From Candidatus Jordarchaeales archaeon (lineage in GTDB: Archaea; Asgardarchaeota; Jordiarchaeia; Jordiarchaeales; Freyrarchaeaceae), in NCBI GenBank assembly GCA_038858525.1, contig JAWCFL010000006.1, forward strand, positions 41,759-73,758: a stretch of DNA of 32,000 nucleotides. Direction: 5' to 3'. Positions 1,050 through 12,480 of this stretch are shown piece after piece. Below the pieces are notes generated by a model that ran no database searches, was not told the origin of the DNA, and saw only the letters and a program-made list of their open reading frames with translations. The translations under genes and the position numbers were made by a program. Every line of letters begins with the position of its first letter. Position 1 is the stretch's first letter.

Positions 1050-1144
1050 CCGTTGTCGGATAGTTAATTTTTTATAACTATCCGTTCCACCTCGGCTAAA
1101 GCCTCATGGGTGGCTTTCGCCGCCAACGGTAAAGGACGGCACAT
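1049..1144 (-). ncRNA. Putative omegaRNA scaffold (3' part) of element A, overlapping the tnpB 3' end
   Basis: Stem GCCGTC/GGCGGC whose loop ACCGTTG (1130-1124) is complementary to the terminal CAACGGT (1055-1049), plus a subterminal 10-bp hairpin. The position matches known TnpB omegaRNAs. The 5' limit is unknown. Confidence 0.6.
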
Positions 1145-2239
1145 GGAGAGTTTTCCAGCTATGTTCCAAGCGGCGACCAAGTGTCTATCTGCTTGGAAGC
1201 CGCACCGCCTGCATTTGAAGACGTGCCCATTCGGCTTACTAATTTCGCCACACATCGATGTCCTAGAGGTGTTTTCAGGCTTAACGGTTTCAGGCTTAAA
1301 GCCATGCTCCATCCCCTTATAGGAGATGTAGAACTGGATTCTTCTGAATGGTATGCTGTGGAGCCTCCTATTCATCACCCCACCATACCGAATCCTCTCC
1401 CTTATGTGGGTGAGCTCCTCCATTACAGGCTTAACGTTTTCCTCGGCAACCACACCAGCTACAATCTTCGCCGCCCTATGAAGTACGTCGTTCACCCTCC
1501 GCCTCTCCCTCCCAGAATACTTCGATAACAGCTCAGCTTTTGTCTCCCCCGAGGTCTTACCCTGAATGCTCCTCCTCTTCCTGAAGTACCTGCCTCTAAT
1601 GTGTTTCGCCTCACTTATATCTATCTTGATGAACCTGACCTTACCCGGCTTCACAACAGCCAAGTCTATACTACACTCGTTAACATCGATGCCCAGCACG
1701 CCTTCGGACTTTCTCTCCTCAACCGTCCTCCTAAAAGTAACATGAAGATAGTATTCGTTATTAAATTTTACAAGCCTTGAGCCTTTAACCTGCCAACCCA
1801 TGAACTTCATCGAATGCTCATGAACCCTGAACGGAATCGCGATGTGTCCTTTGTGCGTAGCCAGCCTTACGCATCCCCAACTGAACCAGAACAGGTGGGC
1901 GTCGTCCAAAAGAATGGTGTTTAGTTTCTCAATTCTTGGAGGGTTAATTTCCCCCCTCTTCCTAGAGAGCCTCCTGTAGGACTTGAATATGCTTAGAGCT
2001 TGTGTTATAGCCGTATAAATGTAATGGGATGGGTGGTTCGGATACTTCGTCCTCAGCTCCTTATAAATTGCTTCATGAAGCCTCCTACGTGAGGTCACAT
2101 TTAGATTCATAGCCCTATCTAGGCATGCTTTAACCATTTCGGAATAGCTCTTGAAGAGATCCTCGAGAACGATTGCTTGTTCATCGTTGGGCTGGAGCTT
2201 AAACTTGCAGGTCTCATTCAGCAATAAGCTGCCTGACAC
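1064..2239 (-). CDS. tnpB: TnpB, RNA-guided RuvC nuclease (IS607-associated)
   Basis: 391-aa ORF with RuvC-I VLGIDVNE, RuvC-II PVMEEL and RuvC-III ADRHLVAAWNI. The Zn ribbon is TSRTSMCG...CRRCG, with the first Cys missing. The true start may be TTG a few codons downstream. Confidence 0.9.
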   Translation of the reverse strand: MSGSLLLNETCKFKLQPNDEQAIVLEDLFKSYSEMVKACLDRAMNLNVTSRRRLHEAIYKELRTKYPNHPSHYIYTAITQALSIFKSYRRLSRKRGEINPPRIEKLNTILLDDAHLFWFSWGCVRLATHKGHIAIPFRVHEHSMKFMGWQVKGSRLVKFNNEYYLHVTFRRTVEERKSEGVLGIDVNECSIDLAVVKPGKVRFIKIDISEAKHIRGRYFRKRRSIQGKTSGETKAELLSKYSGRERRRVNDVLHRAAKIVAGVVAEENVKPVMEELTHIRERIRYGGVMNRRLHSIPFRRIQFYISYKGMEHGFKPETVKPENTSRTSMCGEISKPNGHVFKCRRCGFQADRHLVAAWNIAGKLSMCRPLPLAAKATHEALAEVERIVIKN

Positions 2240-2847
2240 TCTTAACCACCTTCTCGTACTTGTGGCTTCTCAAACCATAGAGCTTTTCAGCAAAGCTTGA
2301 AACCAAAGCGATGAGATCCTCTATTGATAGGCGTCTTTAGGCTCTTCACCATTAACGACTTTGATTTTTACGTTGTGAGGGGCGAAGTAACGCTCTAGGT
2401 GTTTGAAGCCGAACCTCGTAAGCCTATCCTTAAAAGCTATTCTTGAAAGCTATTATGACGGCTCCTACCTCTCTTTTCTCGACCATATCAAAGATCTTGT
2501 TCAGGGACTTTCTGTTTTCGTTGAGCCTGCTTGCCGCGTCCTCTAAGATCGCGATAACTTCATTTTAGGTTTGGCGTAACTCGGTAAACTTTGCTTTTGC
2601 CTCTCTAGATCTCCTTTCTGTTTCTGGTCATGGGGGGGAACTCTGGTATAAATCACGGCTTTTTGGGCGTGTCTGGTTTGGCGATGCCCATCAAACGTTC
2701 AACTTCACTTTCAGGTATCCTCCTCCTACCACCAACAGTCCTAACAACTCTAATTTTACCTTGTTTATCCCATTTTCTAAGCGTATTTGGGTGAATGCCT
2801 GATCTCTCGCAGGCTTCGCTGAGCGTCAGCAACCTCTCAATCATCAT
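2214..2847 (-). pseudogene. tnpA: IS607 TnpA serine recombinase, several frameshifts
   Basis: N-terminal MerR-like HTH (LLTLSEACERSGIHPNTLRKWD), followed in shifted frames by KAVIYTRV, DLERQ, LNENRK, KDRLTRFGF and EDLIALVSSFAEKLYGLRS. Stop TGA at 2216-2214 overlaps the tnpB start region. Confidence 0.85.
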
Positions 2848-5852: not shown

Positions 5853-6428
5853 AATCTCTCTGAAGAATCGCTGAACGAGCCTGACTTCAAAAGCGTTAAG
5901 CATCGAGGACTTTGGTTAAATCCATCACGTGCTTTTTTCATTCTTTTTGTTACATCCAAAATATTGAGACATACAAATAAATTGAGATATAAAGTGAGGA
6001 ATAAACTGCAAAGTGCATCGTCAATCAATAATAGCATTTTTGGCCCTAGATTCTTGAACGGCAAGGTTCCTCGTAGTTAACACGGAATTTCTCCGCCGTT
6101 CCTAAAATCTGACCTGGCAACTGCACTTCACCATTCCCCACCATAGTTACAATTTTTTAACCTTCAACTTACTTGGTTTTTCTGAGAACGAGCACAGAAA
6201 CGCACACTGAAAGACCTCGAAGTAGTTTATCATCAGCGAATTCAAATGCAGGCGTTCAGCGCCTTAGCGCACCTTAAAGCCCTAAAGTTAACATTAACTG
6301 TTTCTAGGTTGCTAAAATATTCTCCATGAACACTCCACAAGAGAAAAATCATCTTCGCAAAGGGGGGTTAATAAACAGTTTCTATCTAATATAAAGTTTA
6401 TTATCTTGCATATAACTTTGGTGACCTT

Positions 6429-7044
6429 GTGCCTGAGAAGCTCTACACTAATGGTGAGGTTGCGAGGACTTTCGGGGCTTCCTATGTCGCTGTTAAGAAG
6501 TGGGCTTATTCTGGTAAGGTTAGGCTTATTAAGACGCCTGGCGGGAAGTATAGGTTTCCCGAGAGCGAGGTAAAGCGGCTTCTTGGAGGGCGGACTCCGA
6601 AGGGAAGGGCTGTGATTTACGACAGAGTGGGTGCAGCTGACCAGTGGGAGGATTTGGAGAGACAGAAGCAAAGGCTCATTAGGTATGCCAAGAGTAGCGG
6701 CTACAGGATATAGTGGTTCTTGAGGACATAGCTTCCGGGTTAAACGAAGAATAGGAAGAGCTTGATGAGGCTTTTTGAAGTGGTTTCACAGAAACAAGTG
6801 GAGGTCGTCTTCATAACATAGGGATAGGCTTACAAGGTTCGGCTTCAAGTATTTAGAGGCATTCTTTAATTCTCATGGCTGTAGAATAGAGTGCTTAGAT
6901 GCTGAAGAAGTTAAGGAGCCACAACAAGAGCTTATAGATCTAATAGCCATAGTTACGAGCTTTGCTGGGAGAATCTATGGAGCGAGAAGCAATAAGAAGC
7001 GGAGGGTTGTGGAGGCTGTTGAGCAGACGATTAGAAACAATTAA
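6429..7044 (+). pseudogene. tnpA: IS607 TnpA serine recombinase, frameshifted
   Basis: HTH (LYTNGEVARTFGASYVAVKKWAYSG) and RAVIYDRVG..DLERQ, then in shifted frames EDIASGLNE, RDRLTRFGFKYL and LIAIVTSFAGRIYGARS; TAA at 7042-7044. Confidence 0.85.
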
Positions 7045-8415
7045 ACTAGCGGCGAGCTTCAAGCTGAATGGTTTTGTGCCAGACCGAGTTATTCCAAGCC
7101 TACAGGCAGATATTAAGCGAGCTCTTAGACTATGCCTGCGATAGGGGAGTCTCAAGCTTTAAGCGCTTAAAGTCCGAGAAGTATTGTGACTTAAGGGCGA
7201 GGTACCCGAGCTTGCCTATATCAGCAGTTTCGTGGTATATAGGTTTAAATAGAGGTTGATTACTTTGTTCTTAATGATGTCTACTCTAAAACCTGCCCAG
7301 TCTGTTCAGGAAGCATGGCTTCCTATCCGGGCAGGATATTAAACCTTCAGATGCGGGGAGAAGGGTTCCCCCAAAGAGCCCTCAATGAGTTAATCGAGGG
7401 GGAAGGGTTAAGTAGGAATGAAGGTAACAATTCACTATGTATTCCTACTTAACTCAGAACCCTTCACACTACATTTATACTGCATGCCCGATGGCATGCT
7501 TAATATACAAATCCTTCAGGAAGCTGAAAGGGAGGAATAAAGTTAGGTTAGGTCTGAAGCCGCTATTCAGGAAAGACGTTATAATGCTCGACGACCACCT
7601 ATTCAGCATGAACCTCGATAAATGGGAAGCTCCCGTTGCAACGGAAGCTGGGAGAATAGTGTTCAGAATCCTTCATGGAACATGTCATGAGAAGTTCAGG
7701 GGCATGAAGGTTGGGCAAGCATGGCTCGTCAGAAGGCGCGATGGCCATTATTTGAAGGTTGTCTTCAGCAAGACCGTAGAGGTTGCTGAACCTAATGGGA
7801 AAAAATTGGCTATAGACGTAAATGAAGCAGCGTAGCCTACGGCACGGAGAACAAGATAGGCGTCCTTAAGACTGGCGAGAAAGCCATAAGGACGGCATAC
7901 TTCCTGAAGATGCGTAGACTCCAATCCAAACTGAGGCTCAACGAGAAGCCGATACTTGCGAAGTATAGGGGTAGAGAGACGAGGAGGGTGGAGGCAATCC
8001 ACCATAAAATCGCAAACAGTCTCATCGAGGAGGCTAAGAGACAGGGCTGCACAACAAAATAGTCCTCGAAGACCTCAAGCACATCAGAAGACGCATAAGA
8101 AAATCTAAAGCTCTTAACGGCAGATTGAATAGGTGGGGCTTTCAGAAAACTCCAGCACATCATAGAATACAAGGCTAGCTTAATAGATTAAGCGTATTTT
8201 ATGTTAAAGCTGGGAGCACATCAAGTCTATGCCCAAAATGCAGGGGCAGGCTAAGCCCAAGCGGGTATAGGCTGATGAAGCGCCCAAGATGCGAACTGGA
8301 GGAGGACAGAGATATAGTAGCCGTGAAGAACCTCCTCCAGAGAATCCAGATAGATGTGCCGGCTTCACCCGTTCACGGCGAAAGCCCTCCCATGAAAGGA
8401 GGAAAGAAGAAATGA
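7031..8415 (+). pseudogene. tnpB: TnpB pseudogene interrupted by a 246-bp insertion, with further stops and frameshifts
   Basis: LRARYPSLP|SHYIYTAC rejoins when 7218-7463 is removed (compare YPNHPSHYIYTA in the intact TnpB). LAIDVNE, VLEDLKHIR, SSLCPKC, DRDIVAVKNL and DVPASPVHGESPPMKGGKKK* are recognisable in different frames. Confidence 0.85.
7215..7463 (+). mobile_element. Non-autonomous IS607-derived mini-element E1 (left end + TATA + omegaRNA-like scaffold + right end)
   Basis: CCT at 7215-7217 and 7461-7463. CC + 8 nt + CAGTTTC left end; TTTAAATA at 7244-7251; a collapsed tnpB tail reading YSKTCPVCSGSMASYPGRILNLQMRGEGFPQRAL; a 13-bp inverted repeat at 7407-7419 / 7441-7453; TCAGAAC + CC right end. 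Confidence 0.85.
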
Positions 8416-8438
8416 AAGTTAACACTGGATCAGAACGG
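8354..8438 (+). ncRNA. Putative omegaRNA scaffold (3' part) of element B
   Basis: Same motif as in element A (ATGTGCCG...CCGTT..CGGCGAAAGCC.CCCATGA). Internal CCGTTC (8369-8374) is complementary to the terminal GAACGG (8433-8438). Confidence 0.55.
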
Positions 8439-8595: not shown

Positions 8596-9654
8596 CTAAT
8601 ATATTTCTTCTTCACCTTTTTTTCCCTCCCCGGCCATTACCTTGACCTTCTCTTCCTTGACCTTCTCTTCCTTGACCTTCTCTTCCTTGACCTTCTCTTC
8701 CTTGACCTTCTCTTCCTTGACCTTCTCTTCCTTGACCTTCTCTTCCTTCCCGATTTTCTTTCTCAGCTTCTCATCCAGTATTTTTAGTACCTCTATGGCA
8801 TACAGGCTTCTGCCGCAGTAAGGGCACTCGATGACGTTGCCGCTTTCAGGAAGCTTTAGTTTTCCTCCACAATGCGGGCATGCAATCTCCTCAATTATTA
8901 ATCCTCTGGTTTTTAGCAGCAAGCGTATATGTTCGTAGCTCTCTTTTTCCTCAAAAAACACGCCGATTTCTGAAGCAAGCTGATCAAGACGCTCATCGAA
9001 ATCTTTCCTGAGTAACTCCACTTTCTCACCCTGAGCTTTCACTATGTTCGGCCACTCCGCTTTAAGCTTCCTGTATTTATATTCAACATTGTCTAAATTC
9101 GAACGCAGTTCGTCATTAAGCTTATCTACGGCCTTTTTTATCTCTCTTCCTTCCTTCTTCAACATTTTTATTTCCTTACGAGCTGTGGGACTTATCAGTG
9201 GAGACAACACATAAAGAATGTGGGCACCGTATAACGCTAACCCAAATAACAGACCAGGCAATCCATAGCTATAAATAAGTATAACAGTAACAAGGAAAAT
9301 TGAGGTATGCAAGCAGCACACAAAGAGCTTTCTAAACCTATCCTTTGCTTGATTCACGTACATCATTAACGCGTCTTCTAACTCGTGAAGCTTATAAGTT
9401 AAAGCCTCTATTTCCGGCGTATACTTATTTCGTAATTCGTCGCATTCTTTTACTTTCGCGTAATCTAAGCCTCGCACCATTAACTCATACTTTCTGCTTT
9501 CATCATTAAGGACACGTAAATCCTCGGCCAGCTTCCTTAACTTGCCTCTTAGCTCAGGCGCAAGCTCCGTGTACTCGAAACCGTACCCCAACTTCGACTC
9601 AAGCATCTTTTTTATTTTTCTCTCGTTCTCCCTAACCCGCTCATCATAATACAC
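8596..9654 (-). CDS. Membrane protein with coiled coils, two TM helices, a C-terminal Zn ribbon and an (EEKVK)7 tail
   Basis: 352-aa ORF; hydrophobic LHTSIFLVTVILIYSYGLPGLLFGLALYGAHILYVL; CPHCGG...CPYCG. Confidence 0.8.
   Translation of the reverse strand: MYYDERVRENERKIKKMLESKLGYGFEYTELAPELRGKLRKLAEDLRVLNDESRKYELMVRGLDYAKVKECDELRNKYTPEIEALTYKLHELEDALMMYVNQAKDRFRKLFVCCLHTSIFLVTVILIYSYGLPGLLFGLALYGAHILYVLSPLISPTARKEIKMLKKEGREIKKAVDKLNDELRSNLDNVEYKYRKLKAEWPNIVKAQGEKVELLRKDFDERLDQLASEIGVFFEEKESYEHIRLLLKTRGLIIEEIACPHCGGKLKLPESGNVIECPYCGRSLYAIEVLKILDEKLRKKIGKEEKVKEEKVKEEKVKEEKVKEEKVKEEKVKEEKVKVMAGEGKKGEEEIY
8641..8745. repeat. Perfect 15-bp tandem repeat x7 (CTTGACCTTCTCTTC), coding EEKVK on the minus strand
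   Basis: Seven identical contiguous units with no spacers. Confidence 0.97.
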
Positions 9655-11889: not shown

Positions 11890-12480
11890 AATCATAGAGC
11901 TCTTAACGGTAAATTGGCATGGTTACTCGGTGGTTTGATGGAGTTTTCCGCTATTAAAGATGAAGGTCTTGAACGTCTTGTGCGATTAAAAGCTAAATAG
12001 TTGCTCGGCAGTTTCCAGATATATAACTTATTGAGGTTGAAGCCGCCTAAAATTTGCCTAATATGTGGCGAGACAAATGAGCTGAATGGGCGCGTCTTAA
12101 GTGTATGTGAGACTTAAGCGGTAGGATTCTGAACTGCGTAGTCTTTGGTAGACTTGTGTAGCTCTTGGTTTTCATCGAGCCCGTTCTGGGCTCACATCGC
12201 TCTCTAACCCTGTCGAGTCGAACCCGCCCCATACATCCACGCCAAGCCCTTTCGAGCCTGAGGTCATCTGTATGGGGAAAGTCCCCCCATCTGAAGGTGG
12301 CATCATCCGTAGGAAGCCATGCTTCCAGAGCAGAGCCCGGCTCCGGAAAGGTTAATGAGCAAGTCTATTTAAATCTATCTTGAAACTGTTTTTTGAAGGC
12401 GCTTCGCCGCCGTTTTTGGCATTGTAAATTTCCGGCGTGCCGCCCTTATCGTTGGCGGTGAAAACCCCTCGGGAGCTTTA
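11890..12480 (+). pseudogene. tnpB: Heavily decayed tnpB 3' remnant interrupted by mini-element E2
   Basis: RALNGKL (compare KALNGRL in element B) and ICLICGETNELNGRV (compare MCGEISKPNGHV in the intact TnpB). After the insert comes the scaffold motif GTGCCGCCCTTATCGTTGGCGGTGAAAACC (from 12437). The element ends could not be resolved. Confidence 0.65.
12123..12399 (-). mobile_element. Non-autonomous IS607-derived mini-element E2
   Basis: Minus-strand CCT at both junctions (+ strand AGG at 12397-12399 and 12123-12125). CC + 9 nt + CAGTTTC left end; TTTAAATA at 12373-12366; GGAAGCATGGCTTCCTA and ACCTTCAGATG shared with E1; TCAGAAT + CC right end. Confidence 0.8.

Follow-up and report, generated by a model that had tools for sequence, protein, structure and literature searches.

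A 246-bp insertion that encodes no protein, E1, interrupts the tnpB gene of a decaying mobile element in the window, the stretch of 32,000 nucleotides of archaeal DNA that we analyzed and to whose positions all coordinates refer unless another contig is named. E1 is probably a guide-RNA mini-transposon: an element of an IS607-type archaeal family, left protein-less and non-autonomous by internal deletions, that would be moved by a TnpA acting in trans, transcribed from its own promoter, and used by a TnpB encoded elsewhere. The proposed mechanism starts from three parts that E1 retains, namely the left end with a TATA box and transcription start region, the last ≈180 nt, corresponding to the region that encodes the omegaRNA scaffold in TnpB systems, and a copy of the CC core at each junction. 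Acting in trans, a serine-recombinase TnpA would excise E1 as a circle and integrate it at CC, and transcription from the left-end promoter would run across the scaffold and the right end into the flank. This RNA would be loaded on a family TnpB from elsewhere, whose cleavage of the empty site, GCC followed by TTCACACTAC..., would favor retention of the element. The features concerned are the following.

6380–8438 (+): host element B, a decayed GG-core IS607-like element with tnpA at 6429–7045 and tnpB at 7068–8412
7214–7216 (+): GCC target motif in the left flank, a candidate TAM; CC at 7215–7216 is the left core copy
7217–7283 (+): left end, ≈66 nt, with the conserved CAGCAGTTTC at 7223–7231
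7244–7251 (+): TTTAAATA, a predicted archaeal TATA-like box 27 nt inside the left end
7274–7284 (+): relic HTH-gene start ATGATGTCT, then deletion junction 1, identified against the full copies G000:C14 and G000:C24
7292–7335 (+): nested hairpin in the RNA fold, CCTGCCC (7292–7298) with GGGCAGG (7329–7335) around GGAAGC-ATG-GCTTCC
7330–7345 (+): deletion junction 2, GGCAGGATA/TTAAACC, located by comparison with full copies
7355–7372 (+): GGGG...CCCC hairpin in the RNA fold, with loop GGGUUC at 7363–7368
7379–7402 (+): stem CCCUC/GAGGG, 96.6% of cells paired in 61 tails
7405–7455 (+): long subterminal hairpin, 96.9% of cells paired, three pairs compensatory (100/149, 108/140, and 109/139)
7457–7462 (+): right-end terminus GAACCC; CC at 7461–7462 is the right core copy
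7463–7482 (+): predicted guide, if an omegaRNA is made; host tnpB sense sequence starting TTCACACTAC

The boundaries of the insertion are sharp. The original prediction had placed it at 7218–7463; the length of 246 bp stands, and the best coordinates are instead 7217–7462 on the plus strand, with an ambiguity of 1–3 nt that is inherent to a shared core. CCT does occur at both junctions (7215–7217 and 7461–7463), as had been noted, but across more than 30 family members CC alone is shared, and the T is a coincidence. E1 splits the conserved TnpB motif YPSLP/SHYIYTA (here and below, the slash marks the junction) of host element B. The host frame from 7068 reads ...YCDLRARYPSLP to 7217 and picks up at 7464 with SHYIYTACPMACLIYKSFRKLK; once E1 is removed, AGC TTG CC/T TCA CAC TAC is joined and reads ...RARYPSLPSHYIYTA. 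An intact TnpB of 391 aa encoded elsewhere in the window (1064–2239, minus strand) has YPNHPSHYIYTA at the position that matches the insertion. The site is likewise uninterrupted in homologs from the same genus (YPDLPSHY in G003:C24 and YSSLPPHY in G003:C55) and the same order (PELPSHY in G008:C152), compared at a DNA identity of 67–72%, and one uninterrupted host homolog runs ...CTGCC/GTCGCACTAC across it. The joined reading, the intact TnpB, and the homologs together confirm that removing E1 restores the host tnpB frame, and the search for an empty-site tnpB allele, which the original prediction had proposed as a check, led to these same uninterrupted homologs.

Host element B itself carries many stops in both tnpA and tnpB, and its ends read GG + 8 nt + CAGTTTC ... 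TCAGAAC + GG. It has homologs in G003, G004, and G008 at 67–72% identity, and no paralog was found in the source genome (G000). The best explanation for this arrangement is that E1, already miniaturized, entered a GCC site in the tnpB of host element B, a decaying IS607-like element of the GG-core type to which it is unrelated. For genome annotation, the insertion accounts for a 246-bp break in a tnpB pseudogene. Nested insertion is ruled out as a rule for such minis; none of the 12 others that we checked lies inside an IS gene. Because of this count, the simplest reading of a mini sitting in a dead tnpB is survival in neutral DNA.

The ends of E1 follow the layout of the full elements, as predicted, with CC + 8 nt + CAGTTTC (7225–7231) at the left terminus and TCAGAAC + CC at the right terminus. 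The left end is 90% identical to G000:C14:47817–47886 and 93% identical to G002:C1:433495–433549. In ≈30 family members, the left flank is NGCC preceded by unrelated sequence (L167 reads GCT), and the right-end homology stops exactly after ...CAGAACCC in 65 aligned tails. Since the tails end alike and the left flank is NGCC in ≈30 copies, we take the core to be CC and the target or TAM-like motif to be GCC. The two ends are asymmetric and carry no terminal inverted repeats, and nothing but the shared dinucleotide core is duplicated at the target; E1 thereby lacks both hallmarks of a strict MITE. The left-flank GCC and the right-end CCC differ at position −3, which may separate the empty donor site from the element in the manner of CboIStron. 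By the rule that the guide lies directly outside the right end, the putative guide would occupy 7463–7482. Within the left end, the TTTAAATA box was found where it had been predicted, 27 nt from the terminus. It is kept at the same distance across the left ends of the family and, in full elements, stands 22–25 nt upstream of the leaderless HTH-gene start codon.

The full members of the parent family are 1.35–1.4 kb long (L057, L096, L020, L040, L100, L120, L130, L135, L142, and L105) and consist of a left end with the TATA-like box, an HTH ORF, tnpB, and a right end ≈13 nt past the tnpB stop. The HTH ORF has 64 aa, ends ...ATGSQ*, and comprises only the DNA-binding domain of an IS607-type TnpA, matching HTH_17/MerR as the DNA-binding domain of IS607 TnpA itself does. 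The tnpB gene, which overlaps it, encodes 384–388 aa with matches to OrfB_IS605 and a Cas12f1-like TNB domain, and the nearest structural relatives of the protein are solved TnpB structures. The crossover core is CC in all family copies. In the two GG-core elements of the same window, the layout is otherwise alike, with core + 8 nt + CAGTTTC ... (T)CAGAAC/CAAC + core; the CC-core family thus shares its end layout with host element B, which has a full, if decayed, tnpA. Family members occur in hot-spring MAGs (G061, G063, and G064 among them) labeled Brockarchaeota, Bathyarchaeia, Nitrososphaeria, Geocrenenecus, Wolframiiraptor, Terraquivivens, Methanomethylicaceae, and Nezhaarchaeota. The tails are ≈80–97% identical to that of E1 across these hosts, which suggests that the family has been exchanged among distantly related archaea. 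Intermediate derivatives, ≈0.7 kb in length, are also present.

Two deletions separate E1 from such a full element. The first left codon 3 of the HTH gene next to codon ≈310 of tnpB, with the loss of ≈1.1 kb, and the second removed 51 nt comprising the second CxxC and the RuvC-III motif (TKCEECG...MDRDVVAV). What remains of the body is 94% identical to G000:C24:25395–25518 and 97% identical to G002:C1:432157–432281, and the last ≈180 nt, made up of the tnpB 3′ tail and the right end, are 94–97% identical to G000:C24:25395–25623 and G002:C1:432157–432376. These identities and the 51-nt deletion bear out the earlier claim that the body is the tail of a different tnpB subtype without the second half of the zinc finger and RuvC-III. 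The nested stems and subterminal hairpin listed in the original prediction are all present in the sequence at the places given for them and recur in the RNA fold. The nested hairpin at 7292–7335 derives from what was once the first zinc-finger CxxC of TnpB; it is kept in the E1 lineage, the G002 minis, the Brockarchaeota minis, and L063, and is absent from L111.

E1 is not the only mini of this kind. Independent minis include a pair in G002 (L025 and L028), L063, L111, and a set of eight copies, seven of them from a single Brockarchaeota MAG and the eighth from a Nitrososphaeria MAG. The eight are 249–296 bp long and 89–98% identical, have unique flanks behind NGCC, and share a single junction at the 7-nt microhomology CCCTCTG; in L053, L075, L084, and L112, all from Brockarchaeota, CCCTCTG joins HTH codons 8–10 in frame to the first tnpB CxxC. 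Two Brockarchaeota minis, L053:3880–4163 and L136:106–373, have identical left flanks and differing right flanks, a mixture that suggests either that copies have recombined or that sequences were joined within the repeat during assembly. The orthologous intergenic regions of the two G002 minis are too diverged in G000 for a reading of the empty sites. There are at least five independent deletion lineages, and in none of them has the TATA box been lost or the tail become shorter than ≈135 nt.

To characterize the retained tail, we considered its fold and its pattern of substitution. The RNA fold of E1 has an energy of −63.5 kcal/mol (z = −3.07), and 0 of 200 shuffles were as good. A four-helix structure was tested in an alignment of 61 tails (A1), most of which overlap coding sequence; 96% of cells are paired, compared with 27–63% when the partners are slid by 1–3 columns. 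Changes on both sides of a pair affect 36 cells in these 61 tails versus 16 in shuffles, a control that overstates the support because the tails are related. Compensatory pairs occur in two helices, the subterminal hairpin (GGA/UCC versus GAG/CUC; U-A versus C-G) and the CCCUC/GAGGG stem. One pair of the latter varies within the non-coding E1 lineage, with U-A in the family, U-G in E1, and C-G in the metagenomic minis L167–L169. The loop GGGUUC (7363–7368) can moreover pair with the terminal GAACCC, core included, in a pseudoknot or closing helix. The pairing shows no variation within the family; in the GG-core elements of the window it changes with the core, to CCGTTC/GAACGG (8369–8374/8433–8438) and ACCGTTG/CAACGGT (1130–1124/1055–1049). 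A pseudoknot beside the guide has been described as general for TnpB and Cas12 RNAs. The Rfam search with the E1 scaffold returned no family match, either at the gathering score or at E values up to 10. Overall, these comparisons show a conserved RNA-like structure with compensatory changes and make a good case, short of proof, that the tail is an RNA gene. E1 keeps exactly the part that encodes the guide RNA in TnpB systems.

The same tail could instead be transposase-binding DNA or a hitch-hiking remnant, E1 being a pure parasite of the transposase that moves as other miniature non-autonomous elements do and neither makes nor uses a guide RNA. Minis with damaged structures do persist: L084 and L097 have no subterminal hairpin and half of the pseudoknot hairpin is missing from L025, so the RNA is not indispensable for persistence. 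The tnpB copies of the family in G000 are also either frameshifted (C24) or cut by contig ends (C17, which is open over aa 139–371, and C14, which covers aa 1–81), and conservation among young copies is little informative. Against these points, the deletion lineages independently keep the TATA box and a tail of at least ≈135 nt, although CboIStron, the studied IS607 relative from Clostridium botulinum, requires only 40 bp and 60 bp of its ends to be excised (10.1101/2023.11.20.567912). This retention fits selection for a promoter and a scaffold, a post hoc argument. The compensatory changes also fall within a non-coding mini lineage (U-A, U-G, and C-G; GGA/UCC versus GAG/CUC), and stand-alone omegaRNAs elsewhere work in trans, according to the account in PMC10691335 that cites Altae-Tran 2021. 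Taken together, we regard the parasite reading as unlikely, with a guide-RNA role for the E1 tail preferred.

As in the original prediction, we infer that an IS607 TnpA moved E1 in trans. None of our searches recovered a serine recombinase whose ends or DNA-binding domain match, no family member carries a catalytic TnpA domain, no autonomous element with these ends turned up, and no protein that fuses the family HTH to a resolvase domain was found. Longer proteins that contain the family HTH were rejected as candidates, all being read-through artifacts such as a beta-lactamase-family gene interrupted by an element. In P0001, a protein from a JGI metagenome, the beta-lactamase-family gene runs via the inserted left end into the HTH ORF; P0001 is a gene broken by a family member and mis-called as a single protein. 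The TnpA copies of G000 belong to GG-core elements, with an HTH only distantly similar to that of the family, and the one uninterrupted stretch of HTH and catalytic domain, C6:1–490, is cut by the contig end and is of the GG-core type. Three of the six other host MAGs (G061, G063, and G064), which are incomplete bins, have no resolvase domain. The remaining three have resolvase genes without family ends, and only one of these has a 44%-identical HTH. Among the three without a resolvase domain is a Brockarchaeota MAG with ≈20 family loci, including seven young minis. It is conceivable, if quite improbable, that HTH-only CC-core TnpB elements and their minis multiply without a classical IS607 serine recombinase; if the incomplete bins produce no artifact here, the enzyme may be an unrecognized one, or the HTH protein may recruit one.

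A separate observation concerns the GG-core tnpA genes of G000, which are broken at the same two homopolymer runs (window 2640–2700, minus strand; L012:1440–1520; and L013). The first run, CCCAAAAAGCC, lies at the boundary between the HTH and catalytic domains and resembles an A AAA AAG slippery site. The second is a run of C6–7 over the catalytic serine codons; run lengths vary among copies, and G000:C6:1–490 is uninterrupted. Slippage, whether programmed or transcriptional, could lie behind these breaks, as could decay shared among the copies or an error of assembly.

Whether the mini form itself has moved can be judged from further copies, a check that the original prediction had proposed. 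In G000, blastn and nhmmer found none, only partial matches to full elements, and E1 is single-copy there; the exact pattern of its first junction had 0 matches in the metagenomes. A metagenome scan with the second deletion junction recovered four contigs, L167, L168, L169, and L170, of which L168 and L169 represent one locus, giving three loci. The minis on these contigs are 226–235 bp long and colinear with E1 from end to end at 80–84% identity. Their second deletion junction is identical to that of E1, and the first lies at the same place and is 11 nt shorter. The flanks are unrelated, intergenic, and non-syntenic with G000. Because the two-deletion architecture recurs at four sites with unrelated flanks, the comparison shows, at the level of sequence, that the mini form itself transposed. 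The claim of mobility is thus upheld by three other loci that carry the exact second junction in unrelated flanks, and the expected additional copies came from metagenomes and not from the source genome. Had there been neither further copies nor an empty site, E1 would, on the earlier reasoning, have been reduced to a one-off decay product; both copies and uninterrupted sites were found. The right-end pattern matched viral contigs 34 times, 0 of these matches fit the element profile, and we saw no sign of a viral vector.

These copies bear directly on a further alternative, in which a full 1.4-kb element was inserted and then decayed in situ through two deletions, so that the mini never moved. 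Such an account would suit the single copy in G000, the location of E1 in a neutral decaying region where deletions accumulate, and a first junction that is unique in its exact sequence. It would, however, have to explain three other loci in unrelated flanks with an identical second junction and the first at the same place, and a repeat of the same 51-nt deletion with 2–3 nt of microhomology is very unlikely. On these comparative grounds, decay in place is essentially excluded. The idea that E1 encodes a small protein, either from a 22-aa ORF (ATGATG at 7274) or from a 45-aa ORF beginning MASY (from 7315), is rejected and merits next to no credence: both ORFs are open in E1 and several Brockarchaeota minis fuse the first 8 HTH codons in frame to the TnpB tail, but that fused start codon is lost in four of the eight Brockarchaeota copies, L025, L028, and L063 have a disrupted tail frame, Pfam gives no match for the 45-aa product or for E1 as a whole, and no ORF is conserved among the minis.

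A second protein-less mini in the window, E2 (12124–12399, minus strand), belongs to a subfamily that has diverged further. It is bounded by GCC/TTCAAAAAACAGTTTC ... CAGTTCAGAATCC/T and carries a TTTAAATAG box like that of E1 and a GGAAGCATGGCTTCC hairpin. Elsewhere, at 8640–8750, a 15-nt unit (CCTTGACCTTCTCTT) is present ≈7 times in tandem within a minus-strand ORF of 352 aa (8596–9654) with zinc-ribbon-like matches.

E1 belongs to a class that has already been described, the stand-alone guide-RNA mini-transposons. The novelty that the original prediction implied for a stand-alone omegaRNA cassette was therefore too high, since mobilized stand-alone omegaRNAs have been published: the account in PMC10691335, citing Altae-Tran 2021, describes such RNAs as mobilized without effector and transposase. 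Like those loci as described there, E1 has no effector or transposase genes, shows homology to the omegaRNA-encoding ends of effector-bearing elements, and occurs in the same form at several loci; its tnpB-bearing relatives in G000 are frameshifted or cut by contig ends. Unlike the loci in that account, E1 is archaeal and IS607-type, that is, of the serine-recombinase type, and has a CC core. A comparable group is formed by the PATE-like gene-less IS200/IS605 elements, which often encode omegaRNAs, as in Geobacillus stearothermophilus (Meers et al. 2023, 10.1101/2023.03.14.532601). By analogy with these, E1 is gene-less, keeps both ends and the putative guide-RNA scaffold, and would depend on TnpA and TnpB in trans. 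In PATEs, however, an imperfect palindrome lies near each end and is recognized by a Y1 transposase, which mobilizes the element in single-stranded form. The left end of E1 lacks a palindrome, and no conserved left-end hairpin was found in the minis or the family; both junctions of E1 instead share an invariant dinucleotide core, and its ends, like the family HTH, are of the IS607 type.

Among IS607-type systems, the canonical core is GG, at both termini and in the target (IS607/IS1535, PMC6188088). E1 resembles IS607 TnpB elements in that it has no inverted repeats, its target-adjacent motif ends in the core, and its right end mimics the motif. It departs from the definition of IS607 in having no GG termini and no serine-recombinase TnpA with a MerR-like HTH; the parent retains only the 64-aa HTH and E1 neither part. 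In the CboIStron system, a laboratory mini-IS607 that lacks both tnpA and tnpB is excised when TnpA is provided in trans, and TGGG versus TCGG at −3 separates the empty donor site from the element (10.1101/2023.11.20.567912). In contrast to CboIStron, E1 has a CC rather than a GG core, a parent without the TnpA catalytic domain, and no intron, and in contrast to the laboratory construct it is natural, with the promoter fused directly to the scaffold. We found no description of natural IS607-type minis like E1 in the literature. The RAGATH-18-derived reRNA of ISFba1 (PMC11061315) also places the scaffold at the 3′ end of an IS607-type tnpB, although that of E1 matches no Rfam covariance model and is of a different scaffold family.

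Measured against these systems, E1 opens no new mechanism and is of moderate interest for its CC core, the recurrent and independent fusion of promoter to scaffold, and a helper transposase that was not found. Such minis arise repeatedly by deletion, in every case with promoter and scaffold kept, and spread among distantly related hot-spring archaea. E1 provides a clean, well-bounded archaeal example of the stand-alone guide-RNA mini-transposons and defines a CC-core variant of IS607-type ends, in which a candidate TAM of GCC versus a terminus of CCC at −3 may follow the same self/non-self logic that experiments have established for a bacterial IS607 element.
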